From positions 266,484 through 330,483 of the forward strand of contig CAYRKM010000001.1 in the NCBI GenBank assembly GCA_964425075.1: a stretch of DNA of 64,000 nt. Direction: 5' to 3'. Source of the stretch: an uncultured Gammaproteobacteria bacterium (GTDB taxonomy: Bacteria; Patescibacteriota; Microgenomatia; Levybacterales; GWA1-39-11). The notes below the pieces were generated by a model. The model saw only the letters and a program-made list of their open reading frames with translations, did not search any database and was not told the DNA's origin. The position numbers were made by a program, and so were the translations under genes. Positions 7,069 to 59,790 of the stretch are shown here, piece by piece. The first letter of the stretch is position 1. Each line of letters opens with the position of its first letter.

Positions 7069-7142
7069 ACAAATAGTATTGCCACGTTAGCGTTTTAATT
7101 GCAAATGGGTTATTTTTACCCTATGTTACAATACACTTGGCT

Positions 7143-7181
7143 ATGGACGATGTAGAAAAGAAAGCGACTTTTCGTTTTTAA
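7143..7181 (+). repeat. Upstream copy 1 of dnaG start (ATGGACGATGTAGAAAAG) forming 12-codon mini-ORF MDDVEKKATFRF*
   Basis: Exact 18-nt identity with copy 2 and 17/18 with the true dnaG start at 7227. Spacing 41 and 43 bp. Confidence 0.7.
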
Positions 7182-7183
7182 GT

Positions 7184-7222
7184 ATGGACGATGTAGAAAA
7201 GAACTCTACTTTTCTACAATAG
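7184..7222 (+). repeat. Upstream copy 2 of dnaG start forming mini-ORF MDDVEKNSTFLQ*
   Basis: See copy 1. The downstream tail is similar but diverged (ACTTTTC shared). Confidence 0.7.
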
Positions 7223-7226
7223 AAGT

Positions 7227-8990
7227 ATGGATGATGTAGAAAAGGTAAAAGCAAAACTCAATTTAGTTGATGTAATTGAAGGCTATATCCCTCTGAAGCG
7301 AGCTGGAAGAAATTTTAAAACCCCTTGTCCCTTTCACAATGAAAAAAGCCCTTCATTTGTGGTTTCTCCTGAAAGGCAAATTTGGCATTGTTTTGGATGC
7401 GCAAAAGGTGGAGACATGTTTACATTTGTTGAAGAATACGAAAGAGTGGACTTCTCTGAAGCTCTTAAAATTTTAGCGGATAAAGCTGGAATAACGCTTA
7501 CCAAAACTGTTTTTAAAACCAAGAGAGATGAGAAAAAGAATAGGATTTATGAAATAAATCACCTTACAGCTCAATTCTATCACTACCTTTTAACAGAGCA
7601 TAAATCCGGAAAAGAAGCACTTTCTTATGTAATTGAAAAGAGAGGATTAACAAAAGCTCTCCTTTCAACTTATATGCTGGGATTTGCTCCTCTTCAAAGA
7701 GACGCGCTATCTCAATATCTTATAAAGAAAAAGCACTATTCAAAAGAAGAACTTGTTGAGGCAGGTGTTTCTTTTTTTAGAAACGGGAGGGTGTTTGATT
7801 TCTTCATAAACCGGCTTATTTTCCCAATTCTTGATAGTAGGGGCAATATCATCGCCTTTTCAGGACGCGCCTTAACTGACAATGTAATGCCTAAATACAT
7901 AAACACAAAAGAAACCCCGGTATACGTAAAGGGAGACACTGTATTTGGAATATATCAGGCAAAAGAAGAGATCAAAAAGGAGGGTAAAGTAATTGTTGTT
8001 GAAGGTGAATTTGATGTTATTACTAGCTTTAAGGAAGGAATTGTAAATGTTGTTGCAGTCAAAGGAACAGCTTTAACTGAAAATCAAATTCGACTTTTGA
8101 AGCGCTTTTCCCAAAAAATAGTTTTTTGTTTTGACACAGACCCTGCAGGAACTGAAGCGCAGCGTAGATCAATTGCATTAATTGCAAAAGAGGGAATTTC
8201 TGCCTCAGTTGTACTTCCTCCACAGGGAAAAGATCCTGACGAATTATTAAGAGACAATCCTGGCCTTTTTAAAAAAGCTTTAAAAGAGGAGATAAATATC
8301 TATGATTTTATCCTGGAGTCATCCATTCAAAAAATTGATCCAAAGTCAGTAGACGGTAAAAAAGCTATCCTCTTAAGAACTTTGCCGTATTTATATGATA
8401 TTGAGAATGAAATTGTAAAAGAGCATTACCTAAAGAAACTTGCCTCACTTTTAGATTCATCCCTTGAGTCGGTTGTAAAGGAAGCTGAGAAACTCAAATC
8501 CCCTCCACCGGCACCCCAGCCAGAAAAACTAAAGATTGAGAAAAAACCACGACAATATATGATTGAAGAATATTTGTTAACACTTATTGTACAAAGCGCT
8601 AATCCAAAAGAAGCAACTATTCTTACAGCAGGAATTATTAATGGCGTAAAACTACAAACTCCTATTTTTAACCAACTATTTGAATTTTTGCGTGAATATT
8701 TCAAAACCCAGGACAAGCTAGTTTTGGAAGAGGTCAGTCAAGTGCTTCCAAAAGATCTTACGAGTGTTTTTGACCTATGTTTACTTACCCCAATTCCACA
8801 ATTTGCAACAGAAGAATTATTTACTCACCAACTTGGAAAAACGGCAAATGAGGTAAAACACATATCTATTAAGGCAAAATTGTCAGCAATCTCAAATTCC
8901 ATAAAAACTGCTGAAAAAGAAGGAAATGAGGAAAGCATAGAAGAGCTTCAAAAGGAATTTGATATGCTTGCCTCTCACTATAAGAGCTAA
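7227..8990 (+). CDS. dnaG: DNA primase
   Basis: CHC2 zinc finger CPFHNEKSPSFVVSPERQIWHCFGCAKGGD, TOPRIM region (VVEGEFDV), followed by rpoD as in the classical operon. Confidence 0.9.
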   Translation: MDDVEKVKAKLNLVDVIEGYIPLKRAGRNFKTPCPFHNEKSPSFVVSPERQIWHCFGCAKGGDMFTFVEEYERVDFSEALKILADKAGITLTKTVFKTKRDEKKNRIYEINHLTAQFYHYLLTEHKSGKEALSYVIEKRGLTKALLSTYMLGFAPLQRDALSQYLIKKKHYSKEELVEAGVSFFRNGRVFDFFINRLIFPILDSRGNIIAFSGRALTDNVMPKYINTKETPVYVKGDTVFGIYQAKEEIKKEGKVIVVEGEFDVITSFKEGIVNVVAVKGTALTENQIRLLKRFSQKIVFCFDTDPAGTEAQRRSIALIAKEGISASVVLPPQGKDPDELLRDNPGLFKKALKEEINIYDFILESSIQKIDPKSVDGKKAILLRTLPYLYDIENEIVKEHYLKKLASLLDSSLESVVKEAEKLKSPPPAPQPEKLKIEKKPRQYMIEEYLLTLIVQSANPKEATILTAGIINGVKLQTPIFNQLFEFLREYFKTQDKLVLEEVSQVLPKDLTSVFDLCLLTPIPQFATEELFTHQLGKTANEVKHISIKAKLSAISNSIKTAEKEGNEESIEELQKEFDMLASHYKS

Positions 8991-30245: not shown

Positions 30246-31583
30246 ATGGAAGACCTTTGGAAACAAGTCCTTGCTGAAATACAACTAGAAGTGTCCCCGC
30301 CAAGATTTACAACCTTTTTTAAAAAAACAACGCTTTTGTCCCTTGATGGAGACGTTGCCACAATAGCGGCTCCCAACTTTATGGTAGCAGAGCTATTGGA
30401 GAGGAATTATTATTCGCTTCTTAAGAGAGTTATTGATAAAAAAACTGAAAAAAATGTTTCCCTCATTTTTGAAACCCGGCAAGCAATTTCTCCTCAGAGA
30501 GACTCAGGACCATTATTCACGCAGGTTTCGTCTCAAAAGACTACAAAGAAAAGACCAATGAGAATAAAACCTGACTATAATTTTGACACCTTTGCAGTCT
30601 CCGACAGTAACCAGCTCGCATACACCGCTGCAAGCACTGTAGCAAATGACCCTGGCGGAAAATACAATCCTCTTTTTCTATACGGCTCTGTTGGGGTAGG
30701 AAAAACCCACCTGATGCATGCAATTGCAAATGAGGTTGTTGATAAGAATAGTAGCGCTTCTATTGTTTACCTTACTACTGAAGAATTCACAAACGAGCTC
30801 GTTGAGGCTATACAGTTCAAAACCACAACCCAAATGAGAAAAAAATTCAGGAACACAGACCTTTTACTTTTGGACGACATTCAATTTCTGAGCGGCAAGG
30901 AGAGGGTTCAAGAGGAGCTCTTCCATACTTTTAACACACTAATTGATAAGCATTGCCAAGTTATTTTTTCCTCAGACAGGCCCCCACATGAAATAAAAAA
31001 AATTGAAGCTCGGCTGGCATCTAGATTTGAGGGTGGACTTACAGTTGATATTGCCCCCCCGGACTTTGAGTTAAGAACTGCAATTCTCCTTATCAAAAGC
31101 GAAAAACTTGGTCTCTCTTTATCAGCTGAGCTTGCAAAGAGGGCGGCTGAAAAAATAACTGACTCAAGAGCCCTCGAAGGATTTCTGCTTAGGCTTATGT
31201 CGTATGTTGCAGCAAAACAAATAACCGAAATTAACGAAGAGCATATAGATGTCTGTCTTGGAAAACTGAAAGAAGAAAAGCAGGCCATTCATCCTGACGA
31301 CGTTGTAAAGGCGGTTTGTGACCATTTTAATATTAAAAACACACAGCTAAAAGGCACTAGAAGAGATGCTTTTCTGGTTAAGCCTCGACATATTTGCATG
31401 TTTTTACTAAAAGAGGAGCTTGGACTCACCTTTGTTGAAATTGGCAATCTTTTGGGTGGGAGAGATCACACAACAGTAATGCATGGTGTGGATAAGATAA
31501 GGGAACAGCTTCAGGGTTCTTCACATATCAATGAGGAAATCTTGTTCATTAAAAAAAAGGTTGAGGAGGGATATCTACAATAG
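30246..31583 (+). CDS. dnaA: Chromosomal replication initiator protein DnaA
   Basis: Walker A GSVGVGKTHLMHAIAN, sensor motifs, C-terminal DNA-binding HTH (LGGRDHTTVMHGVDKI). Confidence 0.95.
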   Translation: MEDLWKQVLAEIQLEVSPPRFTTFFKKTTLLSLDGDVATIAAPNFMVAELLERNYYSLLKRVIDKKTEKNVSLIFETRQAISPQRDSGPLFTQVSSQKTTKKRPMRIKPDYNFDTFAVSDSNQLAYTAASTVANDPGGKYNPLFLYGSVGVGKTHLMHAIANEVVDKNSSASIVYLTTEEFTNELVEAIQFKTTTQMRKKFRNTDLLLLDDIQFLSGKERVQEELFHTFNTLIDKHCQVIFSSDRPPHEIKKIEARLASRFEGGLTVDIAPPDFELRTAILLIKSEKLGLSLSAELAKRAAEKITDSRALEGFLLRLMSYVAAKQITEINEEHIDVCLGKLKEEKQAIHPDDVVKAVCDHFNIKNTQLKGTRRDAFLVKPRHICMFLLKEELGLTFVEIGNLLGGRDHTTVMHGVDKIREQLQGSSHINEEILFIKKKVEEGYLQ

Positions 31584-31713
31584 AAAAATGGAACACTTTT
31601 GTAAACACTTTTTCCCCCGAGTTTTCCACTACTTATCCACTTTTTTTGAGCCTCAGCCGTTTGCTTTTATACACTTATCAACCTATACTACTACTAATAC
31701 TAATTAATATTAT

Positions 31714-32817
31714 ATGAAGGTAACTATACTAACAGAAATCATTGATATATATATTCCACTTATAAACAAAACCCTTCCAACACATTCCCAAGTACCCATA
31801 CTTTCAAACATACTTCTTGTTGCAAAAAAAGACGGATTAACTCTTAAAGCAACAGATTTAGAATTAGGAATAGAAATAAAAATACCCGCAAAAATAGAAG
31901 CAGAAGGCTCAGTTACCGTTCCAGGTAAAGAATTTTTGGAAGTAATTGCTTCTTTACCCAAAGATAAAATAACCCTCGAGCTTATTAAAGACACTTTGAC
32001 ACTTCAATGTAGAGCAAGCAAAGTGAGTTTTAATACTATTCCAATGGAGGAATTTCCGGAGCTTTACAAAAGTAGGGGGGAAGAGGTCGCTCGATTTGGA
32101 AAGGGTGAATTTATGGACATCTTTTCCTACCTAGTATTTGCGGTTTCCGCAGAAGAAACAAGGCCTCAGTTGACGGGTGTTTTTATAAACAAGAAAGACG
32201 ATAAAATAGACTTTGTTGCAACTGATGGATATAGGATGTCTGTTAAGACAATAAGTGGGGGAGAGAGGAAAAACATATCTCAAGGATTGATTATTTCAGT
32301 TAAGTTAATAAATGAGGTTATGGGACTAAAGAATGATAAGGGGGACGTAGTTTTAAGAGTTAATCAGCAAGAGAATCAGGTTTTTTTTGAACTTGGGGAT
32401 GTGTTGTTTGTGGGGAGAATGATAGAGGGCGGATTTCCTGATTATTCAGGAGTGCTTCCTAAAGAAAGCAAAACAATAATTACCGTTGATAGGGAAGAGT
32501 TGCTACAAAGTGTTAAATTAGCATCTGTTTTTGCAAAAGATCAAAGCAACGTTTTGACGATGGAAGCAAGAGGCCAAGCGCTGCATTTGACAACAAAAGC
32601 TTCTGGTGTAGGCGAGGGGGAGATGGTGGTTGATTGTGAAAAGAAAGGCGAAGATGTAAAAATTGCATTTAACGCCCGATTTCTTCAGGATTTACTAAGG
32701 ACAGTTGATGCAAAAACAATTACTTTGAAGTTGAATAGTGGACTTGAATCAGCCCTGTTTGAAATAAAAGAAAGCAATTTTAAGCATGTAATAATGCCTG
32801 TTCAGGTGGACAATTAA
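31714..32817 (+). CDS. dnaN: DNA polymerase III beta sliding clamp
   Basis: 367 aa, three-domain pattern, position directly after dnaA. Confidence 0.85.
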   Translation: MKVTILTEIIDIYIPLINKTLPTHSQVPILSNILLVAKKDGLTLKATDLELGIEIKIPAKIEAEGSVTVPGKEFLEVIASLPKDKITLELIKDTLTLQCRASKVSFNTIPMEEFPELYKSRGEEVARFGKGEFMDIFSYLVFAVSAEETRPQLTGVFINKKDDKIDFVATDGYRMSVKTISGGERKNISQGLIISVKLINEVMGLKNDKGDVVLRVNQQENQVFFELGDVLFVGRMIEGGFPDYSGVLPKESKTIITVDREELLQSVKLASVFAKDQSNVLTMEARGQALHLTTKASGVGEGEMVVDCEKKGEDVKIAFNARFLQDLLRTVDAKTITLKLNSGLESALFEIKESNFKHVIMPVQVDN

Positions 32818-45030: not shown

Positions 45031-45106
45031 ACTATCTTAATCATAACTTAAATTGAGGAAATTGTTAAATTGTCACTTTTTTAGTAATTAGAACTTAGTC
45101 ACTAAG

Positions 45107-45173
45107 CTTACTTTTCGTCAGGAAAGCAAGGGGAGATATTAATCACTCAACTTACTTTTCGTCAGGAAAGCAA
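45107..45173. repeat. Two 23-bp perfect direct repeats CTTACTTTTCGTCAGGAAAGCAA (45107-45129, 45151-45173; about 32 bp with flanking similarity) in the promoter region of the pilin operon
   Basis: Seen directly. 44-bp spacing. Lies between the pilin-fusion gene start (45030) and the winged-helix regulator gene. Confidence 0.7.
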
Positions 45174-45182
45174 AATGAGCGA

Positions 45183-46571
45183 TTAGTCGCTTAATTTATA
45201 TCCTTTTCCTTTTATCGTGTGAATAAAGTGAGGATTGGTAGGGTCTTGTTCTATTTTCTTTCTTAGTCTATAAAAAATCTGATCAAGAGCTTGATCTGTG
45301 ACTCCTTCTTGGGTTTTGTTATCACTCCAAATAGCATTAATTATCTCGTCTTTTGAACAAAGTTTTTCTTTATTTGCAATTAAAAACTTAAGCAGTTTGA
45401 ATTCTGAGGGTGAAAGCTTGTCCGATATTGAGGCATCTCCAACTCGTATATCATTTTTCTCACTGTCATAAGTAAGTTTATCTTTACTTGAAACCGATGT
45501 TGTCTTGATAAATTCTGAAAGTAGGGGAATGGATGGGGCATTATTTTTTATAAGTTCACTATTTGTTAAAAAGGAAGAAGCATTTGTTATCGGTGAATTT
45601 TTTAGTTCAATTTGCTCTGAAGGGAGAAGGGCATTCCAAATTTCAGATAATGCCCCCTGAATGGTTGGTCTTTTCAATAAAAAGTCACGAAGGCTTGAGG
45701 GTGTTTCGTCTTCGCTAATAAGCGCCTCATAAGAGAGCTTGGTGAGTTTTGCATGTCCTCCGGTAAGATTAAGAATTTCCTTTTTTGTATTTTCAGGAAT
45801 TGTTTTATGAGCCGCCTTTTCAATATATGAAAGCCTAAAGTCCATCCCAATAGGGTCAAAAAGAGAGACAAATACGTTGTTCCCCGCGACTATATCATGA
45901 AAGTCGGAAAGCAATTCTGGCTCACATACATCCTCAAGTGGTCGAGTAAGCGCAAATACGCTCCCAAATCTATATTTGGCATGATTTCGAAGGACTCTGA
46001 GGTTAGTAAAAAATTGAGAGTCAATAGTTGGAAGTAAAGAGTCGAATCTATCAAATAGCAAATGGACTGTAAGTTTCTTTTCTATTGATAGGTAATCAAG
46101 GGCTTGTTTTAATGATTGAAATAAAACTAACTCATCCTGCATGCTCACCCCATTTTTCAGAAATTCGTTTACTTTTTTTGATTCATCAATCAGGCGTCTT
46201 TCTCCAAGAGAGAAGGCAAGAGACAGTAGGATAAATTTAGTTATGTCAAAAAGTGGGCGATTTTTAACCTCGGTTGAGTCAATATATACAAAATGCATTA
46301 TTTTTTCGTATTCTCCAAAATGTTTTGCTCTCACATTTAGGTTGTAGGCTAGTAGACGCAGGATATTGCTTTTTCCAACCCCTGGAAGTCCAACGACCTG
46401 AGAAGAAAGACCCTTTCCTATAAAAGGAGCAAGAGCACTAAGCTCCTTTTCGCGCGTTCCTTCAGGATACAAGCTTTCAAAATATTTAAGGGGTTCAAAT
46501 TGCATGGTATCTCCAATATACCACAGTAAAAGGGAGCTGTGAGGTGGTTGTAAGCTAAATATCAAGTTCAA
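45183..46571 (-). CDS. Putative transcriptional regulator: N-terminal P-loop NTPase domain plus C-terminal OmpR/PhoB-type winged-helix DNA-binding domain
   Basis: Walker A GLPGVGKSNILRLL. C-terminal ...KLLKFLIANKEKLCSKDEIINAIWSDNK...ALDQIFYRLRKKIE...IHTIKGKGYKL typical trans_reg_C. Confidence 0.6.
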   Translation of the reverse strand: MNLIFSLQPPHSSLLLWYIGDTMQFEPLKYFESLYPEGTREKELSALAPFIGKGLSSQVVGLPGVGKSNILRLLAYNLNVRAKHFGEYEKIMHFVYIDSTEVKNRPLFDITKFILLSLAFSLGERRLIDESKKVNEFLKNGVSMQDELVLFQSLKQALDYLSIEKKLTVHLLFDRFDSLLPTIDSQFFTNLRVLRNHAKYRFGSVFALTRPLEDVCEPELLSDFHDIVAGNNVFVSLFDPIGMDFRLSYIEKAAHKTIPENTKKEILNLTGGHAKLTKLSYEALISEDETPSSLRDFLLKRPTIQGALSEIWNALLPSEQIELKNSPITNASSFLTNSELIKNNAPSIPLLSEFIKTTSVSSKDKLTYDSEKNDIRVGDASISDKLSPSEFKLLKFLIANKEKLCSKDEIINAIWSDNKTQEGVTDQALDQIFYRLRKKIEQDPTNPHFIHTIKGKGYKLSD

Positions 46572-49696: not shown

Positions 49697-51727
49697 CTAA
49701 CTACTATTATTTCCATCTCTCAAATCCTCAACTGCATCTTGAGCTCCAAGAGCTGCATCTCTTGCCTCATTAGCTGCTACTTCTGTTCGTTGCGCTGCTC
49801 TTCCTGCTTCTGGATTTGCATTGTCTGCGTCATCCGATGGCCCCGTTGCAACCTCTGAACCAGTTGCACCTCCTCCTGAGGGTGCTGGTTCTCTTCCTGC
49901 GGGTGCTGCGCCTGCAGGGTTATTTCCACTGTCTTTTCCCTTATTTCTTCTCAACGGATTTTTTATCCAGGGAATGTGTTCATATCCACCTTTTCCATCG
50001 TTCTTTTCAGGATCCCAACGTTTTGACTTAAAGCTGCCCCCAAATACAGCAGCTGTAAGTCTGCCGCCCCTTTCCTCAGCAATTCTTGTTAACAACTTTG
50101 GATTACCCATTGCGTCCTCACCCCAAACCTTGTTCCAACCACCTTTGATAGGTGAAGTTATGAGTTTTTGACCTGAGCCCAATGCTCTTCCGGCAGCTCC
50201 TGCAATCTTAAGGTCAGGAGCTTTTAGAGCTTGTTTTGTTATATTTACAGCCTCAGGCATGATAAGTATCATTCCAAGTCCAAGTATTGATGCAATAGCC
50301 CCAACTCCATTGTCTCCAGGATCTCCTACAAGAGGGGGGATAAATGTGGCCTGGCCTGGAACCACGTTGTCCTGAACTGCTTTTCCAATTAGGAATAAAA
50401 CAATAACAACAGGAAAGGCTGCAAGATTTGCTGTAACGCTTCTAAGCCAGGGACCAACGCCTCCACCGGCTCCAGGAATAACTCCTTTCAATATCCAAAA
50501 TGGGGCAAAAATAACATCAAGAATGATAAACACATAGGCTTTAATAAGCATGAACCAAACCCGAAGAAGAGCAGAAAGAATTGCGATTGCTATTATAAGG
50601 TAGGCAATAATTAGAGCAATAAGGCCGAAGACTTTGGTCCCAAAAGCATAACCAGCCGCCCCCATTATTGGTCCGAGAATCCAATTTGTGCTAAAACCAG
50701 CTATTTCAGGCGCCATATTTGCAGCAGTCATTCCAGCGATAATACCAGTTACGATTCTTGCTAGCTGTTCTCCAATTCCACCTTCAAAGAGTGATCCTAA
50801 AACGTTTGCTATTCCTTTTGCGGCCGGAGTCGCAATATTATTTATCCCGCCCAATCCCCCGACGGCATTAACTGGATTGGTGTCAATATTTGTAATAGTT
50901 GTAAGACCCTGACTATGGAAGAGTTGGATAACAAGATAAATTGAAACATACATCATGTCAATCAAAAATCCGACGATAGCATAGGAAAACGTGATAAGAA
51001 TGAGGGCAATAACAATTTTTGGAATTTGGTTTTGGATACTCATAACAGTTCTAGCGTCAATATTTATACGAAACATTATTCCCAAACCAAGCAGGATAAA
51101 AACTAAAACAAACAATAAATAAACGAGATTTCTAAAAGTTTCCCAAATTTTAAGAACCGGAGTAAGGCCTTTAAATCCTATTCCTTGCCCAAATCCTGTT
51201 TGTGAAGCTTTTGCAGCATCAAGACATGCTCCCATCGATTCAGGAGGAGTGCCTAGGCATTGCTCGGTTGGGGTTGCGGCATATGAATTACGTGTTATCC
51301 CAAAATTTGATGCGACGTATTTTCCATATTCAACTGAGGAAACAGGTATATTATAGGTAGACCCAATAAGATTTCCGGAAAGAGTTAATAGTCCTCCCGT
51401 GCCATTTTCTACATATCCTACCTTTCTTGTTGTTGGGTCAATTCCAAGACATTTACCATTGGTTGAAAGAGGATCGTATCCTGTTAAAAAGCAAGATGCT
51501 GTTGCTAGGATGTTTATAAATGTAGTTTGAGTATAGGTATTAATATTTTGAGGAACATTTGGATTTGTGTTTAGAGGCAATGACTGAGGGGAGGCAATGT
51601 TTGAAGTTTGAGCTGAAACATTTCCGGTAAAAATAAAAACACCTAAAAAGAAAAAGACAGATAGAAGTGCGATCTTTGCTTTTTGAGAGAATACTTTAGT
51701 TTTCCATTTAGAGCAGTTCATTTTCAT
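49697..51727 (-). CDS. VirB6/TrbL-like polytopic membrane protein with Gly/Ala/Pro-rich C-terminal tail
   Basis: Signal peptide, about 250-aa periplasmic region, then more than 8 TM helices, then GGSFKSKRWD...GAAPAGREPAPSGGGATG tail, an architecture typical of TrbL/VirB6. Assignment by architecture only. Confidence 0.45.
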   Translation of the reverse strand: MKMNCSKWKTKVFSQKAKIALLSVFFFLGVFIFTGNVSAQTSNIASPQSLPLNTNPNVPQNINTYTQTTFINILATASCFLTGYDPLSTNGKCLGIDPTTRKVGYVENGTGGLLTLSGNLIGSTYNIPVSSVEYGKYVASNFGITRNSYAATPTEQCLGTPPESMGACLDAAKASQTGFGQGIGFKGLTPVLKIWETFRNLVYLLFVLVFILLGLGIMFRINIDARTVMSIQNQIPKIVIALILITFSYAIVGFLIDMMYVSIYLVIQLFHSQGLTTITNIDTNPVNAVGGLGGINNIATPAAKGIANVLGSLFEGGIGEQLARIVTGIIAGMTAANMAPEIAGFSTNWILGPIMGAAGYAFGTKVFGLIALIIAYLIIAIAILSALLRVWFMLIKAYVFIILDVIFAPFWILKGVIPGAGGGVGPWLRSVTANLAAFPVVIVLFLIGKAVQDNVVPGQATFIPPLVGDPGDNGVGAIASILGLGMILIMPEAVNITKQALKAPDLKIAGAAGRALGSGQKLITSPIKGGWNKVWGEDAMGNPKLLTRIAEERGGRLTAAVFGGSFKSKRWDPEKNDGKGGYEHIPWIKNPLRRNKGKDSGNNPAGAAPAGREPAPSGGGATGSEVATGPSDDADNANPEAGRAAQRTEVAANEARDAALGAQDAVEDLRDGNNSS

Positions 51728-51796: not shown

Positions 51797-51835
51797 CCTT
51801 CGCTGAGCTCAGTCCGGGTCCTTCGCTGAGCTCAG
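51797..51835. repeat. Two copies of CCTTCGCTGAGCTCAG (each containing the 10-bp palindrome CTGAGCTCAG) with 23-bp period
   Basis: Seen directly in the divergent region between the VirB6-like gene and 51923 gene. GC-rich relative to surroundings. Confidence 0.6.
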
Positions 51836-51884
51836 GGCAGGACTTTTATTCAATTTAGTCTAATGTCACTTGAGGCAAAAAATA

Positions 51885-51922: not shown

Positions 51923-52519
51923 ATGATAAGAGTATATAAAGTTGTTTTGGGGGTTCTTCTTTTTGTTGTTTTCATAACAAATACTGCTTTTGCAAAAAGC
52001 GCAGAGCCGGTAGAGAGCACTACCCCAGAACGCATAGACGCAACAGTGAGCGCCAAACCCGGAAAGATTGAGTACGAGTTGCCATATCCTGGGATGCTGC
52101 CTGACAACCCTTTGTATTTTTTAAAAACAATAAGGGACGCGATAGTAAAAGCATTAATAAACGACCCATTTAAAAGAGCAGAATTCAATCTTTTAACTAC
52201 ACAAAAAAGAATGTATGCGGCAAAGTTTTTATCGGAAAAGGGGAAAGATAAGTTAACATACGAAACTGTTGCAAAGAGCAATAATTATTATCATGAGGCA
52301 ATAGATTCCATTCAAGTTGTGCAAAAGAATAATCCCAAGAGCCCTGTTGTGAAGCCGTTTCTTGATCAGGCATTGAAGGTAAACATAAAGCATAAAGAAA
52401 TTTTGGGGGTAATAAAAAAAGAAATAGACAAGAAATACCAGAAAGATGTTTTAAATGAAGAAAAAAGACTTGAAAGGATGAAAACTACAATTGACCAAAT
52501 GCTAAAACTTTACCTCTAG
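51923..52519 (+). CDS. Secreted hypothetical protein (DUF5667-like N-terminal motif common in Patescibacteria)
   Basis: Signal peptide then YPGMLPDNPLYFLK motif. Confidence 0.4.
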   Translation: MIRVYKVVLGVLLFVVFITNTAFAKSAEPVESTTPERIDATVSAKPGKIEYELPYPGMLPDNPLYFLKTIRDAIVKALINDPFKRAEFNLLTTQKRMYAAKFLSEKGKDKLTYETVAKSNNYYHEAIDSIQVVQKNNPKSPVVKPFLDQALKVNIKHKEILGVIKKEIDKKYQKDVLNEEKRLERMKTTIDQMLKLYL

Positions 52520-52778
52520 AAAAGTTATTTAGGGTAAGCATAATTTTCTTTCCCCACATATTCAATATTACAGTATTGAAGTAGTTTGTTATACGCTTTT
52601 TAGCAGTTCTTTTCCAAATTATAGTCTGTGTTTATTTTTGAGGCTAGGGAAAAAGTTGCGATGATTTGATACATTTATTTATAGTTGACACTGCAGATAT
52701 AGTGGTTTACATTAGTTCATGACACTAGATATTGTGTTTTTTGAGGTTCTTTAACAATACGCTTGAAATATAAAATTT

Positions 52779-53228
52779 ATGCATTGTCCATATTGTAAAC
52801 ACAACAATACTGAAGTAGTTGAAACCCGCGTTAGTGAGGATGGGAATAATATTCGAAGGAGAAGGCTTTGTGGTAATTGTTCAAAGAGATTTACTACTTA
52901 CGAAAGGGTTGAAAACCTTACCCTCTTGGTAATGAAGAAAGATGGAAGAAGCGAGAGATTCAGTAGAGAAAAACTTAAGGGTGGAATTCTAAAGGCAGTT
53001 GAGAAAACCACCGTAACCCTCGAGCAGATTGAGAGAATAGTTGATGATATAGAGCGCGAATTATTGGGTTCTGATAGCGTAGAGGTGGAAAGCAAAAAAA
53101 TTGGGAGACTTGTTGCTTCCAATTTAAAAAGACTTGATAAGATAGCATATATTAGATTTGCAAGCGTATTTAAAAACTTCGTAGACATAGAAGAGTTTGA
53201 AAAGGAAGTGAAAAAGTTAATAAGATAA
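52779..53228 (+). CDS. nrdR: Transcriptional repressor NrdR
   Basis: MHCPYCKHNNTEVVETR...CGNC zinc ribbon plus ATP-cone; 149 aa. Confidence 0.9.
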   Translation: MHCPYCKHNNTEVVETRVSEDGNNIRRRRLCGNCSKRFTTYERVENLTLLVMKKDGRSERFSREKLKGGILKAVEKTTVTLEQIERIVDDIERELLGSDSVEVESKKIGRLVASNLKRLDKIAYIRFASVFKNFVDIEEFEKEVKKLIR

Positions 53229-53239
53229 AAAAACATTTT

Positions 53240-53287
53240 ATGGCACTAACTGGAATTAGAGAAAAAGTTTTCATTTCCGAAAATTAA
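53240..53287 (+). repeat. Upstream copy 1 of nrdJ start (ATGGCACTAACTGGAATTAGAGAAAAAGTTTT) forming mini-ORF MALTGIREKVFISEN*
   Basis: 31/33 nt identical to the true nrdJ start at 53440. Followed by a diverged tail and stop. Confidence 0.7.
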
Positions 53288-53345
53288 TTTGAGGAAACAA
53301 AAAGGAAGTATAGAAAGTTATTAATGGAGGTTAAATTTTAAAAAT

Positions 53346-53393
53346 ATGACATTAACTGGAATTAGAGAAAAAGTTTTTATTTTCGAGAAGTAA
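53346..53393 (+). repeat. Upstream copy 2 of nrdJ start forming mini-ORF MTLTGIREKVFIFEK*
   Basis: 33-nt perfect identity with nrdJ start. GGAGG located 18 nt upstream. Confidence 0.7.
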
Positions 53394-53439
53394 CTCGAGA
53401 AAACAAAATTTTTATTCGAAGAAAAAAACAAACTACTTT

Positions 53440-55851
53440 ATGACATTAACTGGAATTAGAGAAAAAGTTTTTATAGACCGTTATTCATTGAAAGATGCGG
53501 ATGGTACTCCTCTTGAAACAGAACCCCAACAGATGTGGAGAAGGGTAGCTAAGGGAATAGCTGGACAAGAAGTAAAAGCCAAACGTGAAGAATGGGAGGA
53601 AAAATTTTATAAAGTTTTAGAAGACTTCAAATTTGTTCCTGGGGGAAGAATTCTCTCAGGGGCCGGAACAGGATATCAAGTAACTTACTTTAATTGCTTT
53701 GTAATCCCATCGCCCAAGGATTCTAGAGAGGGAATTCTCGATAGTCTTAAACAACTCGTCGAGATTCAAAGTCGCTCTGGGGGTGTGGGACTAAATCTGT
53801 CCTCCCTTCGCCCCCGCGGGGCACGTGTTAAAAAAGTAAATGGTACTTCTTCAGGTCCCGTAACCTGGGCAGGGCTTTTTTCATACGCAACCCATGACGT
53901 TGTACAGCAGGGTGGAACCAGAAGAGGGGCAACAATGCTTATGCTTTGGGATTGGCATCCTGATATAGAGGAGTTCATTACTGTAAAAGAGGACCTTTCC
54001 AAAATAAATGGCGCAAATCTATCAGTAAATGTTTCAGATGCTTTTATGAGCGCTGTTAAAAATGATTCTGATTGGGAATTGGTTTATCCAGATCTTGACG
54101 ATCCTAAATATGATGAATTTTGGGATGGAGATATTGTGGGCTGGAAGGCAATGGGGGGAGCCGTAAAAGTATACAAAACAGTAAAGGCTCGTTATCTTTG
54201 GGATCTTATTTGTACAGCTGCTTGGAAAAGTGCTGAGCCAGGACTTCACTTTTTGGAGAGAAGCAACAAACAATCAAACACTTGGTATTTCGAAAAGCTT
54301 ATTGCAACCAACCCCTGTGGAGAGCAGCCTCTTGGTGGATGGGCAGTATGTAATCTTGGAGCAATGAATTTGTCTCAATATGTTAAGGATGAGAAATTTG
54401 ATTATGATAGCTTTTCAGATGACGTAAAAGTTGCAATGAGACTTTTAGATAACGTCATTGATGATACGTATTATTTCTTTAAAGAAAACGAAAAGTGCGC
54501 AAAAGAAATACGAAGAACTGGACTTGGAATAATGGGTTTGGCAGATGCGCTTATAAAAATGAAACTCCGTTACGGATCTGAGGAAGCAATGCCAACGATT
54601 GAGAAAATCTTTCAAGTATTAAGAGATAGTGCGTATGATGCGTCTTCTGATATTGCAAAAGAAAAAGGTTCATTTCCTAAATTTGATAAAGAAAAATATC
54701 TTCAGGGACATCATATAAAAGCGCTTCCCAAAAAACTTCGAGATAAAATAGCTGCGCAGGGCATTAGAAATGCAGTACTTCTTACAATTGCTCCAACCGG
54801 AACAACATCATTATTGTCAGGTGTTTCTTCAGGAGTAGAGCCAGTTTATGAATTTACTTTTGTGAGACGAGATAGAACAGGAGAGCACATAATGTACCAT
54901 CCCCTATATGAGGAGTGGAAAGAGCAGAATCCAGATGCGGAAAAACCTAATTATTTTGTAAGTGCAAATGACTTGACCCCGCTAGAGCACGTAAGCGTTC
55001 AGGCTGTAGCTCAGAGATATATTGATTCATCTATTTCAAAAACAGTTAATGCTCCAAATGCGCATACTATTGATGATGTGAAAACCCTCTATATGTTAGC
55101 TTACGAAATGGGGCTGAAGGGAATAACCTACATGAGAGATGGCTCTCGTGAAGGAGTTTTATCAAGGATTGAGGATAAGAAAAAAGAAGAAGAGGTAGAG
55201 AGGGCAGCTCGAGAAATGCCAATAAGAAAACGCCCAGTCGTGCTTCACGGGGTAACTCACAAGACTGTAACACCTTTGGGGCACACATTTATAACGATTA
55301 ATAACGATGAAGAAGAAAAACCATTTGAGATATTTATAAATGCTGGAAAATCGGGTAGTGATGTTATGGCAATGGCTGAGGCATTAGGAAGGATTATGTC
55401 TATGGTTTTGCGTATCCAGTCACCAGTTGAGCCGCGAGAAAGAGTGCGGGATATGATAGATCAACTTTCAGGAATTGGTGGAGGTCGCTCGGTTGGATTT
55501 GGACCAAATAGGGTGCGCTCACTTCCTGATGCTGTTGCAAAGGTTTTGGCAGAGCATTTTGCTTTTAGAGTAAATGGACATGTTGCGGATAAAAAAATTG
55601 AGGCAACTCTTGCAGATGGAGGGAAAAAGGAATCTTTGGAAGTCGTAGCGCAGGAAGCAAAGCCAGTTGAAGCAGCTAAAGAGGTATTTGTAGCAGAGGA
55701 ACCAAGCGAGCCATCTCTTCCGATGGTAGCGGTTTTGCAAGCTCCAAAAAGTGCAGCTAATGCTGATCTTTGTCCCGAATGTGGATCTGCTTCATTCGTT
55801 CACGAAGAAGGATGTGCTAAGTGCTATGCTTGCGGACATGCCGAATGTTAA
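53440..55851 (+). CDS. nrdJ: Class II (adenosylcobalamin-dependent) ribonucleoside-triphosphate/diphosphate reductase
   Basis: Active-site NPCGEQPL, TGTTS, C-terminal zinc ribbon CPECGS...CAKCYACGH; 803 aa; downstream of nrdR. Confidence 0.85.
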   Translation: MTLTGIREKVFIDRYSLKDADGTPLETEPQQMWRRVAKGIAGQEVKAKREEWEEKFYKVLEDFKFVPGGRILSGAGTGYQVTYFNCFVIPSPKDSREGILDSLKQLVEIQSRSGGVGLNLSSLRPRGARVKKVNGTSSGPVTWAGLFSYATHDVVQQGGTRRGATMLMLWDWHPDIEEFITVKEDLSKINGANLSVNVSDAFMSAVKNDSDWELVYPDLDDPKYDEFWDGDIVGWKAMGGAVKVYKTVKARYLWDLICTAAWKSAEPGLHFLERSNKQSNTWYFEKLIATNPCGEQPLGGWAVCNLGAMNLSQYVKDEKFDYDSFSDDVKVAMRLLDNVIDDTYYFFKENEKCAKEIRRTGLGIMGLADALIKMKLRYGSEEAMPTIEKIFQVLRDSAYDASSDIAKEKGSFPKFDKEKYLQGHHIKALPKKLRDKIAAQGIRNAVLLTIAPTGTTSLLSGVSSGVEPVYEFTFVRRDRTGEHIMYHPLYEEWKEQNPDAEKPNYFVSANDLTPLEHVSVQAVAQRYIDSSISKTVNAPNAHTIDDVKTLYMLAYEMGLKGITYMRDGSREGVLSRIEDKKKEEEVERAAREMPIRKRPVVLHGVTHKTVTPLGHTFITINNDEEEKPFEIFINAGKSGSDVMAMAEALGRIMSMVLRIQSPVEPRERVRDMIDQLSGIGGGRSVGFGPNRVRSLPDAVAKVLAEHFAFRVNGHVADKKIEATLADGGKKESLEVVAQEAKPVEAAKEVFVAEEPSEPSLPMVAVLQAPKSAANADLCPECGSASFVHEEGCAKCYACGHAEC

Positions 55852-55874
55852 CTGCAAGCTGCTTTTAAATTAAA

Positions 55875-56017
55875 AATTAATTGGAAATCATGGTGAAAGT
55901 CCATGGCTGTGCCGCAACTGTAAACTCACCCTTTCGGGTGTAAAGCCAGAAAACAAGTAATTCCCGAGCAGGAAAAAAGATTGCCCATTTTGACCTCCTC
56001 GGAAAAGGAGGTTTTTT
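55875..56017 (+). promoter_or_regulatory. Cobalamin riboswitch 1 with SD-sequestering terminator-like hairpin, upstream of pduO-type adenosyltransferase
   Basis: GGTGAAAGTCC...GCTGTGCCGCAACTGTAA core; AAGCCAG B12-box remnant. Expression platform CTCCTcggaaAAGGAGGTTTTTTT immediately before ATG 56019. Confidence 0.7.
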
Positions 56018-56018
56018 T

Positions 56019-56573
56019 ATGGCAATATATACAAAAAAAGGAGATAAGGGAAAAACCGCATTGGGAAGCGGGGTCAGGGTGTATAAAGATACCCCGAGAG
56101 TGGATACATATGGCACAATTGATGAGCTAAACGCGTCTTTGGGGATAATCAATGCTCAGCTTTCTTTAGTTCATAAAAAATACGCGCCTTATCTTTCCAG
56201 AATTACACTTCTTATTCAAGACGATTTATTTTCAATTGGTGCATATCTTTCAAATCCTGCAAACCGTGAATTAGTAAAAAACCTATCATCAAGAACAGTT
56301 GAGTTTGAGAAGTATATCGACGAGATGACTGAGAAAATGCCTGAAATTACCAATTTTACTGTTCCCGGTGGGACAATTGTTGCTTCGCACCTTCATTTGT
56401 CCCGTACTATTTGTAGAAGAGCTGAGCGCAAACTCGTAACATTGATGAAAAAAGAGAAAGTAAATGAGGATGTGGTGAAGTATATAAATAGACTATCTGA
56501 CCTTTTATTTACCATGAATAGATTTTCAAACTTTAGTGAAAAAGTAAAAGAAGTTATTTGGAAAAGACGATAG
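56019..56573 (+). CDS. pduO: ATP:cob(I)alamin adenosyltransferase, PduO/MMAB type
   Basis: MAIYTKKGDKGKTALGSGVRV...DTYGTIDELNASLG N-terminal signature; 184 aa. Confidence 0.8.
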   Translation: MAIYTKKGDKGKTALGSGVRVYKDTPRVDTYGTIDELNASLGIINAQLSLVHKKYAPYLSRITLLIQDDLFSIGAYLSNPANRELVKNLSSRTVEFEKYIDEMTEKMPEITNFTVPGGTIVASHLHLSRTICRRAERKLVTLMKKEKVNEDVVKYINRLSDLLFTMNRFSNFSEKVKEVIWKRR

Positions 56574-58944: not shown

Positions 58945-58950
58945 AATTTG

Positions 58951-59309
58951 TGGAGATGGGGGGTTTTGAGCCCCCGTCCAAAAATCATCCATAAAAACAT
59001 CTACAAGCGTAGTTCCCTCTAATTCTTGCCATATCTAACCGTTGGAACAAAGAAAATATGACAAAGGCCTAATACGAAACGGGCTGGCCAGCTCCGTTAA
59101 GTTTTTCTAGCAGGTTAATGCCTGTATCTTTGTGCTAGAAGCAAGTTGATACAAACAGGTCTTAGGTATTAAGCAAACGCAAAGTTTGGTTTAAAACCAA
59201 GTCCGCTAAATTGTGATTTAGCATGTATTTTTGAACCTCTTTTACGACTTTGGTTCATTGTCGGCTTGCAGTTTTTAAGGTACAATTCTTGTCGATGCAG
59301 TGCATCCCC
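58951..59309 (-). ncRNA. ssrA: tmRNA (SsrA), standard one-piece form
   Basis: Minus-strand 5' GGGGATGCACTGCATCGACAAG... 3' ...GGACGGGGGCTCAAAACCCCCCATCTCCA. Acceptor stem carries the G3:U70 wobble (AlaRS identity) and discriminator A. T-arm GGGGG/CCCCC. Putative tag ORF GCT AAA TCA ... GCG TTT GCT TAA (AKSQFSGLGFKPNFAFA). Adjacent to smpB. Confidence 0.75.
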
Positions 59310-59349
59310 AAGACAAGTATTATAGCAAATAGGCCTATAGAAATCAAGT

Positions 59350-59790
59350 TTAGATAAGGTTTTTTAGCTCTTTTTCTCGGTCGCGTTCAATCGCCTGCTG
59401 TTTTAAATCCTTACGTCTTTCGAATTCTCTTTTACCGCGGGCAAGCCCAATTTCAAGCTTAAAATGTCCGTTTTTAAGGTATAAGGAGAGTGGAGCGAGA
59501 GTAAATTTTCCGGTATCAAGCTTGTTTTTGAGAGTTAATAGCTCTTTTTTATGAAGTAAAAGCTTGCGGGTTCTGTCTTCCTGATAGCCTTCCTTGCGGG
59601 AATATTGGTAGGGAAATATTTTGGAATTTATCAAATAAGCTTCACCACTCATTAATTTTACATACGAGCCCGAAAGATCAACATGGCCAAGCCGGATGGC
59701 TTTAACCTCAGAGCCCAAAAGCTGAATGCCGGCTTCATATTTCTCATCAATTTTAAATCTATTTGGCGCAGTTTTGTTATAAATTTTCAT
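59350..59790 (-). CDS. smpB: SsrA-binding protein
   Basis: 146 aa; conserved GxEVKAIRLG region and basic C-terminal tail. Confidence 0.85.
   Translation of the reverse strand: MKIYNKTAPNRFKIDEKYEAGIQLLGSEVKAIRLGHVDLSGSYVKLMSGEAYLINSKIFPYQYSRKEGYQEDRTRKLLLHKKELLTLKNKLDTGKFTLAPLSLYLKNGHFKLEIGLARGKREFERRKDLKQQAIERDREKELKNLI

Follow-up and report, generated by a model that had tools for sequence, protein, structure and literature searches.

The start of nrdJ is present three times, head to tail, downstream of nrdR (53229-53475) in the 64-kb stretch of DNA analysed here (hereafter, the window), and the two extra starts yield two 15-codon upstream ORFs. Relatives show that the copies have been kept alike and conserved, so the array is probably a regulatory leader that the organism has built itself, not junk. 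We see roughly even chances that the duplicated initiation region has been reused as translated leader ORFs or an attenuator, a function that we infer from sequence. A preliminary description of this DNA had set out the triplication, spacers that are related though diverged, and two short upstream ORFs; all were found in the sequence. The features of the locus are as follows:

52779..53228, + strand: nrdR, 149 aa (Pfam Zn_ribbon_NrdR and ATP-cone).
53239..53274, + strand: box B1, the first upstream copy of the nrdJ start (copy 1), 11 nt past the nrdR stop codon.
53240..53287, + strand: leader ORF 1, putative, 15 codons plus stop (MALTGIREKVFISEN*), with an ATG-retaining ortholog in the relatives L081, L166 and L084.
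53275..53345, + strand: spacer A1, part of which probably derives, as a decayed copy, from the nrdR 3′ end and the old intergenic spacer.
53345..53380, + strand: box B2, upstream copy 2, identical to B3 across 36 nt (TATG...TTTTTAT).
53346..53393, + strand: leader ORF 2, putative, 15 codons plus stop (MTLTGIREKVFIFEK*), with its stop TAA (53391-53393) in a hairpin loop.
53369..53416, + strand: terminator-like hairpin with an inner stem (UUUUCGAG/CUCGAGAA), the loop AAGUAA and an outer A/U stem, then UUUUUAUU.
53439..53474, + strand: box B3, the true nrdJ start region.
53440..55851, + strand: nrdJ, class II (adenosylcobalamin-dependent) ribonucleotide reductase, 803 aa (Pfam Ribonuc_red_lgN, Ribonuc_red_lgC and TSCPD), an enzyme name also given in the source annotations of homologs.

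Each box consists of T, ATG and a further 32 nt (35-36 nt in all), and the three begin at 53239, 53345 and 53439, giving box-to-box spacings of 106 and then 94 nt. The core 23-mer, TAACTGGAATTAGAGAAAAAGTT, has exactly three occurrences in the 64 kb with up to three mismatches tolerated (chance count: mean 0.00 in 100 dinucleotide-preserving shuffles). A repeat search likewise returned one family, comprising 53239-53302 (reference), 53345-53408 (86 %) and 53439-53502 (70 %). Copy 1 differs from copy 3 at three positions within the first 33 nt of the ORF. The spacers of units 1 and 2 are related for the first ~28 nt 3′ of the box (local alignment; 3/1000 shuffles reach the score) and show no alignable similarity past that point; Tandem Repeats Finder did not call the array because the spacers are too diverged. 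An exact scan of JGI metagenome contigs with the 23-mer found no match, nor did an exact-protein look-up with the NrdR and NrdJ translations of the window return any record.

An origin by duplication, one of the readings raised in the preliminary description, is well supported: a unit of ~100 bp ending 35 nt into nrdJ was tandemly duplicated and then duplicated again. The units certainly lie head to tail, and the array of L081, a different genome, has the same 106/94 spacing. The right breakpoint falls at approximately +35, since past this position the upstream copies match the nrdJ coding sequence in register at 32 %, which is chance. On its left, the unit probably starts in the 3′ end of nrdR, taking in the last ~45 nt of that gene and the short nrdR-nrdJ spacer. 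Spacer A1 matches the nrdR 3′ end (last ~25 nt, 53200-53223) at 22/25 positions (local alignment; 16/1000 shuffles, p ~0.016), a modest match that is seen only in the window and is not significant in global alignments. Neither nrdR nor nrdJ is disrupted, since the unit lies across the boundary between the two genes. A short ancestral junction fits the outgroup relative L171, in which the nrdR stop and the nrdJ ATG are separated by 1 nt, and the median nrdR-nrdJ gap of 29 nt (149 loci).

Informative relatives were found by homologous-protein search and then through the contigs encoding those proteins. The array occurs only within a small clade of Levyibacteriota: three nrdJ start copies are present in the window and in L081 (92 % identical), two in L166 and in L084 (in which the copy is truncated), and a single start in L082/L083, L086, L171 and about 150 more distant relatives. 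Its absence from the nested relatives L082 and L086 indicates that the array is dispensable and evolutionarily labile. Protein-seeded scans of genomes and metagenomes returned a best relative of 82 % (GTDB genomes ≤78 %), and all of the relatives found in this way were single-copy.

Derived substitutions are common to the paralogs within a genome and not to orthologs. ACA>ACT and CAA>GAA occur in all three window copies and only there. AGA>CGA is unique to L166, in both of its copies; CTT, likewise in both L166 copies, is also found in L082. Window copy 2 is identical to copy 3, yet its spacer is the ortholog of L081 spacer A2 (92 % identical). These patterns support homogenization of the 35-nt boxes within the genome by short-tract gene conversion or unequal recombination. 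Tandem segmental duplications that evolve in concert by gene conversion are known, e.g. bacterial tuf or rRNA copies, and the nrdJ array resembles them in its paralogs with common lineage-specific substitutions and in the gain and loss of copies among relatives. It differs in that the homogenized tract is only ~35 nt long and non-coding in two of three copies, and in that the spacers evolve as positional orthologs. A diversity-generating retroelement was considered and rejected, as the differences between repeats are G/A, C/T and T/C at mixed positions rather than at template adenines.

Between the window and L081, the codons flanking the array show normal synonymous divergence, and 48 % of nrdJ fourfold sites differ. 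Over the same distance, the 200-nt array, spacers included, is 86 % identical without internal gaps, and the 44 nt at 53373-53416 (hairpin and U-tract) are 100 % identical. Spacer A1 of the window is 80 % identical to that of L081 and 69 % identical to that of L166 (0/500 shuffles reach either value); unlike A1, the adjacent sequence outside the array, upstream of copy 1, is not conserved between L081 and L166. The whole array thus evolves several times more slowly than synonymous sites, which supports purifying selection, a case drawn mainly from one genome pair (window/L081). Other nearby intergenic regions are also 82-94 % conserved, and those are known functional elements. Over its first 20 nt, the upstream copy of L084 differs from L081 copy 2 at two sites and the true starts of the two genomes differ at four, neutral sites being saturated at this distance. 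In codons 3-11 of the intact upstream copies, all differences from the copy's own true start are synonymous, and the five differing sites in L084 codons 2-6 are all third positions, although these counts are small. Synonymous-only differences as proof of selection on the peptide were rejected as under-powered.

A second triplicated start, that of dnaG, had been cited alongside the nrdJ case, and its three copies were confirmed:

7142..7244, + strand: dnaG sister array, TATGGA(C/T)GATGTAGAAAAG at 7142, 7183 and 7226.
7143-7181 and 7184-7222, + strand: putative dnaG leader ORFs, 12 codons each.
7209-7218: CTTTTCTACA, complementary to both dnaG B2 and B3.
7215-7220: −10 box TACAAT, ending 6 nt ahead of the ATG of dnaG, which is the most frequent distance in this genome.

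The dnaG leader stops lie 2 and 4 nt ahead of the next ATG; stops 0-7 nt before the next ATG arise in 10-15 % of shuffled dnaG spacers per unit, and a perfect 10-nt complement to the dnaG box is reached in 8/20000 shuffles. Copy 1 retains the ancestral TGTTACAAT. Two independent Logan assemblies, L167 and L168, built from other sequencing runs, contain the array without a single base difference; it is absent at 79-81 % protein identity. A check for phase-variable copy number had been suggested; the dnaG array is invariant in three assemblies of one species, and nrdJ copy number is 1, 2 or 3 between species and not demonstrably variable within a population.

In the related genome L003, the start of a gene for a signal-peptide protein is repeated four-fold, with a stop 4 nt before the next ATG. 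Three independent instances of copied starts are seen in all (nrdJ, dnaG and this secreted-protein gene). The preliminary description had read such repeats as a recurring feature of replication and dNTP-supply genes. This link is not supported, in view of the L003 gene, the lack of such repeats at dnaA (30246-31583) and dnaN (31714-32817) and a third junction-spanning array in the window, which begins within the 3′ end of the gene for an OmpR-type regulator. No motif is common to the nrdJ and dnaG boxes. The array at 45090-45185 has a similar L-S-D-stop pattern, better explained by hairpin pairing.

These arrays may instead be neutral relics, a reading that we regard as possible but towards which we do not lean. 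Slippage-type tandem duplications would be frequent in this lineage and survive only astride gene junctions, gene conversion with the selected true start would by itself account for the likeness of the boxes, and leader ORFs and hairpins would have no role. The window does have approximately ten times as many short tandem arrays (3-5 per 64 kb) as the relatives' loci (0.34 per 64 kb over 1.14 Mb), and the four arrays that fall outside coding sequence are intergenic or sit at gene junctions. Copies change in number and are lost among close relatives, and the dnaG array is absent at 79-81 % protein identity; concerted evolution itself requires no function. However, conversion within a genome cannot explain the conservation between genomes described above (spacers 80-92 %, the 44-nt block 100 % and no indels in 200 nt, against 48 % fourfold divergence), nor does the reading account for the L084 upstream copy being closer to L081 copy 2 (2/20 sites) than the true starts are to each other (4), or for dnaG stop placement and a complementary element that exceed chance.

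The leader ORF reading draws on how genes start in this genome. SD-like motifs occur in 5/56 genes, whereas a TATAAT-like hexamer (≥5/6 positions) ends 4-10 nt before the start of 17/56 (mode 6 nt; 2-5 genes in control intervals). The genome is almost without Shine-Dalgarno (SD) sites and looks leaderless, and its operon genes are packed with overlaps or gaps of a few nucleotides. With no SD sites and with −10 boxes ~6 nt ahead of starts, the initiation signals are expected at and just past the AUG, and a copied start should therefore itself work as a start.

Because the −10 box, transcription start and first codons of a leaderless gene are contiguous, the copies could also be tandem promoter duplications selected for more transcription, with the copied codons as a by-product. 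The dnaG array would suit this, given the TACAAT exactly 6 nt before its true ATG and the ancestral TGTTACAAT kept by copy 1, as would the hexamers ending 8 nt before the ATG of nrdJ copy 2 (TAAATT in the window, TAATTT in L081). We nevertheless consider it unlikely, as there is no clear −10 box ahead of the true nrdJ start and none that convinces before copy 1, the true AUG would become internal in transcripts begun at the upstream promoters although the organism lacks SD sites, and the conserved hairpin is left unexplained. An antisense promoter-like site (53334-53307, minus strand) was discarded because, by eye, it is not kept in L081 or L166.

Upstream of nrdR, three elements were recognized:

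52685..52713, + strand: promoter-like site TTGACA-17-TACATT, the best-scoring in the region (10/12 positions), overlapping the NrdR-box region.
~52690-52705: second, imperfect NrdR box CACTGCAGATATAGTG, read directly from the sequence and centred 32 bp upstream of the ACACTAGATATTGTGT box.
52722..52737, + strand: canonical NrdR box ACACTAGATATTGTGT, 5′ of nrdR and the sole 0-mismatch match to ACACWANATNTWGTGT in the window.

The TTGACA-17-TACATT site is likely the promoter of the nrdR-nrdJ operon. The two NrdR boxes, centred near 52697 and 52729, overlap it, and their region is 92 % identical in L081. Regulation of nrd operons through NrdR boxes was reportedly described by Rodionov and Gelfand in 2005, and the nrdR-nrdJ operon is similar in having two boxes 32 bp apart over its promoter. 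The nrdJ repeats differ from such boxes in sitting downstream of nrdR, and the two-box spacing of approximately three helical turns occurs only at the nrdR promoter, the repeats being 94-106 nt apart. The NrdR palindrome acaCwAtATaTwGtgt (≤3 mismatches) is absent from 53229-53475, in agreement with the preliminary description, which had recognized none there by eye; the nrdJ repeats are thus ruled out as an NrdR operator. No Rfam 15 covariance model matched 52500-55860 even at E up to 1, and the sole Rfam match in the region is AdoCbl-II, downstream of nrdJ.

More broadly, it is conceivable, though we judge it very improbable, that the boxes are repeated DNA or RNA sites bound by a regulator and contain the ATG by coincidence; candidate regulators would be NrdR, DnaA, an iteron-type protein and an autoregulatory RNA-binding protein. 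Three near-identical 35-nt sites would suit cooperative binding, and the dnaG box holds TTTTCTACA (minus strand), one mismatch from a relaxed DnaA-box pattern. One-mismatch DnaA matches are, however, common (229 observed versus 197 expected), the nrdJ boxes hold no DnaA-like site (TTWTNCACA), and the canonical TTATCCACA is the form used in the oriC region of this organism. Spacings of 94-110 and 41-43 nt are not iteron-like (there are no phased repeats of 17-22 bp). The reading is further opposed by the lack of an NrdR-box match and of a motif common to the nrdJ and dnaG boxes, and by the way the boxes track the synonymous and amino-acid substitutions of the gene, which is not the expected behaviour of binding sites.

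Returning to the leader ORFs, their codons correspond to NrdJ codons 1-12 followed by three unrelated codons, and 11/12 residues of MALTGIREKVFISEN and 12/12 of MTLTGIREKVFIFEK are in common with NrdJ (MTLTGIREKVFI...). The L081 ortholog of leader ORF 2 (MVLTGIRQKVFIFEK*) is unchanged in length and stop position, and an ATG with an open frame of 15-34 codons is retained in 6/6 upstream copies (four genomes). The nrdJ leaders contain no codon run that could serve as sensory codons. The distance from leader stop to next start is 34-58 nt inside the arrays of the window, L081 and L166 and 7 nt in that of L084.

The AU-rich hairpin of unit 2 is predicted at −13.7 kcal/mol (z = −2.0) and appears in the centroid structure in the window; its L081 ortholog is predicted at −12.5 kcal/mol (z = −2.2). 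It was not called by a simple consensus terminator scan. The unit-1 hairpin is neither significant nor robustly predicted, and its apparent compensatory change in L166 was for this reason dropped as evidence. The nrdJ leader as a whole is no more structured than shuffles (z = +0.6), and in global RNA structure, neither the nrdJ nor the dnaG leader beats shuffles in stability. No alternative (antiterminator) pairing was seen at nrdJ, and spacer-to-box complementarity is at chance for nrdJ and L003.

Recoding, by which ribosomes from an upstream copy would take off at the box end, bypass the spacer and land on the matching codons of the true gene to give full-length NrdJ, would select for identical peptides. 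The synonymous differences in codons 3-11, those at five third-position sites in L084 codons 2-6 and the stop codons in hairpin loops just past the box are in keeping with it. We give this reading very little weight, since the gaps of 94-200 nt far exceed known bypasses (50 nt in phage T4 gene 60) and the synonymous pattern, with its small counts, can also come from conversion by functional alleles. An artefact of assembly, conceivable in a metagenome-assembled genome from an uncultured organism for which a second assembly of the strain's nrdJ region was not found, can be practically dismissed given the identical dnaG array in two independent Logan assemblies, the recurrence of the nrdJ architecture in L081, L166 and L084 from different samples and the substitutions that separate the copies and their spacers.

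We therefore return to the regulatory leader, under which the two upstream copies would act as translated leader ORFs, compatible with the earlier suggestion of translational control or decoys. Copy 1, 11 nt past the nrdR stop, would be where ribosomes ending nrdR re-initiate, and copy 2 would end in the loop of the fully conserved hairpin, ahead of the U-tract. Most likely, the copies would jointly gate the polymerases and ribosomes that reach nrdJ from the NrdR-controlled promoter, as a decoy re-initiation site combined with a translation-sensitive attenuator. The nrdJ leader stops lie 46-58 nt ahead of the next start, which is far for re-initiation and makes a simple relay doubtful there. 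The dnaG array, with gaps of 2 and 4 nt, may form a stop/start relay, and its 10-nt element may pair with either a decoy box or the true start.

Several known systems are reminiscent of this arrangement. In classical leader-peptide transcription attenuation (trp, his and pyrBI of enterobacteria), a leader ORF overlaps a hairpin and U-tract, as does putative leader ORF 2 at nrdJ, whose stop falls in the loop of the predicted hairpin; nrdJ differs in having neither antiterminator pairing nor regulatory codons and in its AU-rich hairpin, missed by the simple terminator scan. Termination-reinitiation coupling and 70S scanning (PMC2268962; review PMC9031893) resemble the nrdR stop 11 nt before copy 1, the dnaG and L003 stops 2-4 nt before the ATG and the tightly packed operons of a genome without SD sites, unlike the 46-58 nt gaps inside the nrdJ array. 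Mycobacterial leaderless short ORFs sense cysteine via poly-Cys tracts and unmask a ribosome-binding site, the position of the ribosome on the short ORF deciding the fate of the downstream RNA structure (Canestrari et al., bioRxiv 10.1101/834739; Shell et al. 2015, PMC4633059). The likeness would lie in a putative short ORF at or near the 5′ end, apparently leaderless initiation, a position upstream of the regulated gene on one transcript and, under the proposed reading, control of a downstream RNA structure by where the ribosome stands on the short ORF; the nrdJ leaders, in contrast, lack runs of sensory codons and have no SD site that could be unmasked, are copies of the gene's own start, number two and evolve in concert with nrdJ. 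In E. coli, 5′-terminal upstream AUGs that ribosomes recognize can affect how the gene behind them is expressed (Beck et al. 2016, PMC4965119); unlike the nrdJ copies, these are single, lie on SD-led mRNAs and are not duplicated gene starts. In the literature searched, we found no description of duplicated gene starts acting as bacterial upstream ORFs and nothing on leaderless initiation in Patescibacteria.

As a tentative generalization, which we hold to be possible rather than probable, Levyibacteriota, lacking SD sites and apparently leaderless, may form regulatory leaders by duplicating the initiation region of the very gene that is regulated. Such copies would be translated decoys ("autologous leader ORFs") kept identical by gene conversion, and would gate expression via re-initiation relays, a translation-sensitive terminator (nrdJ) or a spacer that pairs with the decoy or true start (dnaG), a recurrent and previously undescribed route by which post-initiation control could evolve.

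For annotation, the upstream copies can mislead start-codon calling. If neutral, the arrays would offer a clean natural case of concerted evolution over very short tracts (~35 nt or less) and would also show the dynamics of duplication, loss and expansion at gene junctions. Should the leader ORFs function in the proposed way, a single mutational step, the copying of a working start, would suffice to create a translated upstream ORF without SD signals, and gene conversion would keep decoy and target matched. The arrays are a way into translation initiation and operon control in uncultivated bacteria of the candidate phyla radiation, experimentally little known.

The start region of nrdJ is present three times between nrdR and the body of nrdJ. 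Direct reading of 52400–53900 placed TATG(G/A)CA(C/T)TAACTGGAATTAGAGAAAAAGTTTT(C/T)AT at 53239, 53345 and 53439, and a repeat search of the window returned one three-member repeat family with spacings of 106 and 94 nt, bearing out the triplication with a period of about 100 bp reported in the preliminary description. The window has three occurrences of a 23-nt core (0.00 expected). The flanking genes are as follows.

52779–53228, plus strand: nrdR, directly 5′ of the array
53440–55851, plus strand: nrdJ, an 803-aa ORF begun by the third copy, with Pfam ribonucleotide reductase large chain domains and TSCPD; homologs are annotated by their sources as an adenosylcobalamin-dependent enzyme

Copy 1 sits 11 nt past the nrdR stop and differs from copy 3, the true start, at three positions in the first 33 nt of the ORF, while copy 2 equals copy 3 over 36 nt; past approximately +35, the upstream copies match nrdJ at 32 % in-register identity, which is chance level. 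The same description had the upstream copies encoding short NrdJ-like peptides, and they do open 15-codon leader ORFs (MALTGIREKVFISEN and MTLTGIREKVFIFEK, each followed by a stop). It also had the spacers following copies 1 and 2 (A1 and A2) as diverged copies of each other, which holds as far as the first ~28 nt of both.

The window belongs to Candidatus Levyibacteriota, a lineage of the candidate phyla radiation. nrdR lies directly upstream of nrdJ in 149/158 loci (median gap 29 nt, often only −4 to 8 nt), and none of the 78 species-representative relatives (NrdJ identity 78 % or less) carries an upstream copy of the nrdJ start. Closer relatives were found via the protein database and their contigs compared.

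L081 (NrdJ identity 92 %): three copies, ATGs at 650, 756 and 850, with the same 106/94 spacing as the window
L082/L083 (90 %): one copy, 60-nt gap
L084 (85 %): two copies, the upstream one matching over 20 nt only, ATGs at 2036 and 2148
L166 (84 %): two copies, ATGs at 1392 and 1501
L171 (83 %): one copy, the nrdR stop being followed by 1 nt and then the ATG
L086 (82 %): one copy, 100-nt gap

The upstream copy was also absent from all later-fetched loci other than L081, L166 and L084. A neighbour-joining tree of NrdJ gave the topology ((((L082,(L081,window)),L086),(L084,L166)),L171), and spacer A1 can be aligned across L081, L166 and the window. On this basis, a first duplication after the L171 split and a second in the window/L081 ancestor, with the array lost in L082 and L086 and truncated in L084, give the simplest account. 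Many close relatives (L001–L009 and others) are deposited as 'uncultured Gammaproteobacteria bacterium' yet carry Levyibacteriota-like nrdR–nrdJ loci (76–78 % identical to the window in L001–L009), and these titles look like taxonomic mislabels.

Codon tables of all copies revealed changes common to the copies of one genome. ACA>ACT and CAA>GAA (Q8E in NrdJ) are exclusive to the window, where each of the three copies has them, and AGA>CGA is found in both L166 copies and in no other sequence; CTT is in both L166 copies, but in L082 too, and GGT is in copies 1 and 3 of L081. Between window copy 2 and its positional counterpart in L081 there are six differences; the A2 spacers of the two genomes are 92 % identical. 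These patterns point to short-tract gene conversion or unequal recombination, with parallel identical mutations in the separate copies appearing far less likely. Conversion tracts cannot have exceeded 35 nt; window copy 1 retains its own codons 2, 3 and 11 alongside changes in codons 4 and 8 common with the other copies.

As to how the array arose, spacer A1 holds AAAAGGAAGTATAGAAAGTTATTAA, matching the final nrdR codons of the window (AAAAGGAAGT-GAAAAAGTTAATAA). The match between A1 and the nrdR 3′ end covers 22/25 nt (a score met by 16/1000 shuffles), with a colinear distance to the next ATG. Together with the position of copy 1, the tight nrdR–nrdJ junction of outgroup L171 and the sharp drop in similarity to nrdJ at +35, this match indicates a tandem duplication, the duplicated unit probably joining the final ~45–50 nt of nrdR to a short spacer and the first 35 nt of nrdJ. 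The nrdR-derived part is graded as probable since the match is modest and confined to the window, being undetectable in L081 or L166. Such a junction-spanning duplication leaves both nrdR and nrdJ intact. Origin by tandem duplication, with conversion maintaining the array, is well supported, and we consider it very likely.

The array also appears to be constrained. Of 324 fourfold-degenerate nrdJ sites, 48 % differ between the window and L081, and synonymous divergence is ordinary in the last 24 nrdR codons and the first 25 nrdJ codons; therefore, the junction has not been exchanged recently. In the same pair, the 200-nt stretch running from copy 1 up to the true start retains 86 % identity (171/199) with no internal gaps, and the 44 nt at 53373–53416 are identical. 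Spacer A1 is significantly conserved with L166 despite saturation of fourfold sites at 67 %; for the non-array DNA just 5′ of copy 1, no alignment can be made between L081 and L166. Over its first 20 nt, the truncated upstream copy of L084 has two differences from L081 copy 2, compared with four between the true starts of these genomes, and the ATG is retained in 6/6 upstream copies. As intragenomic conversion cannot yield conservation between genomes, purifying selection probably acts on the array, at least in the window/L081 lineage, a conclusion drawn mostly from a single pair of genomes. Conservation is at a similar level in the neighbouring intergenic regions, though these house a promoter with operators and a riboswitch. 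The elements on the nrdR promoter side are the following.

52685–52713: best promoter-like site, TTGACA-17-TACATT
32 bp 5′ of the perfect NrdR box: a second, imperfect NrdR box, read directly from the sequence and overlapping this promoter-like site
52722–52737: perfect NrdR box ACACTAGATATTGTGT, found by pattern search

With the boxes in these positions and no match inside 53229–53475 by pattern search, we rejected the array as an NrdR operator; the first reading had likewise recognised no NrdR box in the repeats. No Rfam family was found for the nrdJ array region, even at E values up to 1. An AdoCbl-II riboswitch-like element (RF01689) lies at 55866–56018 (35.2 bits against a gathering score of 36.5, E value 8e-6; 94 % identical in L082) and is followed by a terminator hairpin (GACCTCCTCGGAAAAGGAGGTTTTTTT), directly 5′ of a PduO-type cobalamin adenosyltransferase gene (56019–56573). 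At 11050–11260, a match to a group I intron (RF00028, 63.3 bits) overlaps the end of ORF 10324–11064 and precedes a CopC/cupredoxin gene (11346–12092); a tRNA or rRNA gene that could be its host was not detected. A tmRNA gene (123 bits, tag peptide AKSQFSGLGFKPNFAFA) adjoins smpB (59350–59790, minus strand), the two spanning 58948–59790.

Could the upstream copies act as starts? An SD-like motif precedes 5/56 window genes, and a TATAAT-like hexamer (5 or more of 6 positions) ends 4–10 nt before the start codon in 17/56, against two to five genes in control intervals, with a sharp peak at 6 nt (nine genes); operon genes are tightly packed, with overlaps or few-nt gaps. Translation thus appears to start on leaderless mRNAs and by re-initiation. 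The hexamers often have an upstream TG. In this mode, start signals would be placed at and after the AUG, so a copied start would likely be functional, and copy 1 would occupy the ancestral re-initiation position after nrdR. The TAA stop of leader ORF 2 (53391–53393) lies in the loop of a predicted hairpin in unit 2 (copy 2 plus its spacer) with inner stem UUUUCGAG/CUCGAGAA, an A-run flank and then UUUUUAUU 3′; this hairpin (−13.7 kcal/mol, z=−2.0) is in the centroid structure and is identical in L081. While completing leader ORF 2, a ribosome would sit over the 3′ arm, an arrangement like that of a translation-sensitive attenuator. Several observations speak against so simple a scheme at nrdJ. 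The leaders stop 46–58 nt before the next start. Antiterminator pairing or box complementarity did not exceed chance, unit 1 has no significant hairpin and the unit-2 hairpin was not called by the consensus terminator scan. A specific leader-ORF/attenuator mechanism is put forward only tentatively. Its closest known counterparts are the leaderless short-ORF attenuators of mycobacteria (10.1101/834739; PMC4633059), classical leader-peptide attenuation and termination–reinitiation coupling (PMC2268962; PMC9031893). Unlike in all three, the nrdJ leader ORFs are duplicates of the regulated gene's own start and evolve concertedly with the gene, an arrangement of which we found no description in the searchable literature.

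Further repeats were found in the window and in L003, a locus from a relative.

7142, 7183 and 7226: dnaG array, 41/43-nt period
45090–45185, minus strand: 44-nt tandem array of ~2.3 units, starting within the final four codons plus stop of an OmpR-type regulator gene
45183–46571, minus strand: the OmpR-type regulator gene
51797–51842: two 23-nt direct repeats, each with a 10-bp palindrome CTGAGCTCAG
L003, 1327–1456, minus strand: the start TATGAA(A/G)AAAATACTTA repeated in tandem, with four copies at a 43-nt period

The dnaG array, proposed earlier as a sister case, is real, and design features are clearer there than at nrdJ. The two leader ORFs, of 12 codons each, end 2 and 4 nt short of the following ATG (a placement reached in 10–15 % of shuffled spacers per unit), and its second spacer carries CTTTTCTACA, a perfect complement to the last 10 nt of the preceding box and of the true start (met in 8/20000 shuffles); pairing with the true start puts the dnaG AUG in a 16-nt loop. 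A TACAAT box ends 6 nt ahead of the dnaG ATG. Since this array is base-for-base identical in two independent Logan assemblies of other runs (L167 and L168) and the nrdJ array recurs in other genomes, an assembly artefact was rejected. The window's species is also represented in sequencing runs SRR14271372 and SRR14271365.

The L003 array has the same geometry as dnaG, with three 12-codon ORFs (MKKILSVAKDFC and a stop) each ending 4 nt before the next ATG; its gene encodes a signal-peptide protein of 442+ codons with no Pfam match. In the 45090–45185 array, TTAAGCGACTAA, TTGAGTGATTAA and CTTAGTGACTAA each encode L-S-D-stop, the first two being followed by CTTTCCTGACGAAAAG and the third closing the array, and the first-unit hairpin is very stable (−15.4 kcal/mol, z=−4.5). 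The 51797–51842 repeats, in the divergent intergenic region between 49697–51727 (minus strand) and 51923–52519 (plus strand), could represent paired operators. The interval 4126–4275, within ORF 3720–4538 (minus strand), has a GC-rich repeat with 6/12/18-nt periodicity (GTCGCC-type units); this is a coding repeat of low complexity and differs from the junction arrays.

The probable oriC region is 30130–31675, with canonical DnaA boxes (TTATCCACA) at 30130 (plus strand) and 31487 (minus strand) and near-consensus boxes at 31622–31675 that flank dnaA (30246–31583) and precede dnaN (31714–32817).

nrdJ (in this clade), dnaG (in the window) and L003 are the only sites of gene-start repeats across 1.21 Mb of Levyibacteriota and related sequence; dnaA and dnaN of the window have none. 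Tandem arrays number 3–5 per 64 kb in the window versus 0.34 in relatives. The idea that such repeats recur at replication and dNTP-supply genes was therefore not sustained, as arrays also lie at the OmpR-type and L003 signal-peptide genes; rather than a mark of replication genes, the phenomenon is junction-spanning tandem duplication, which is unusually frequent in this genome.
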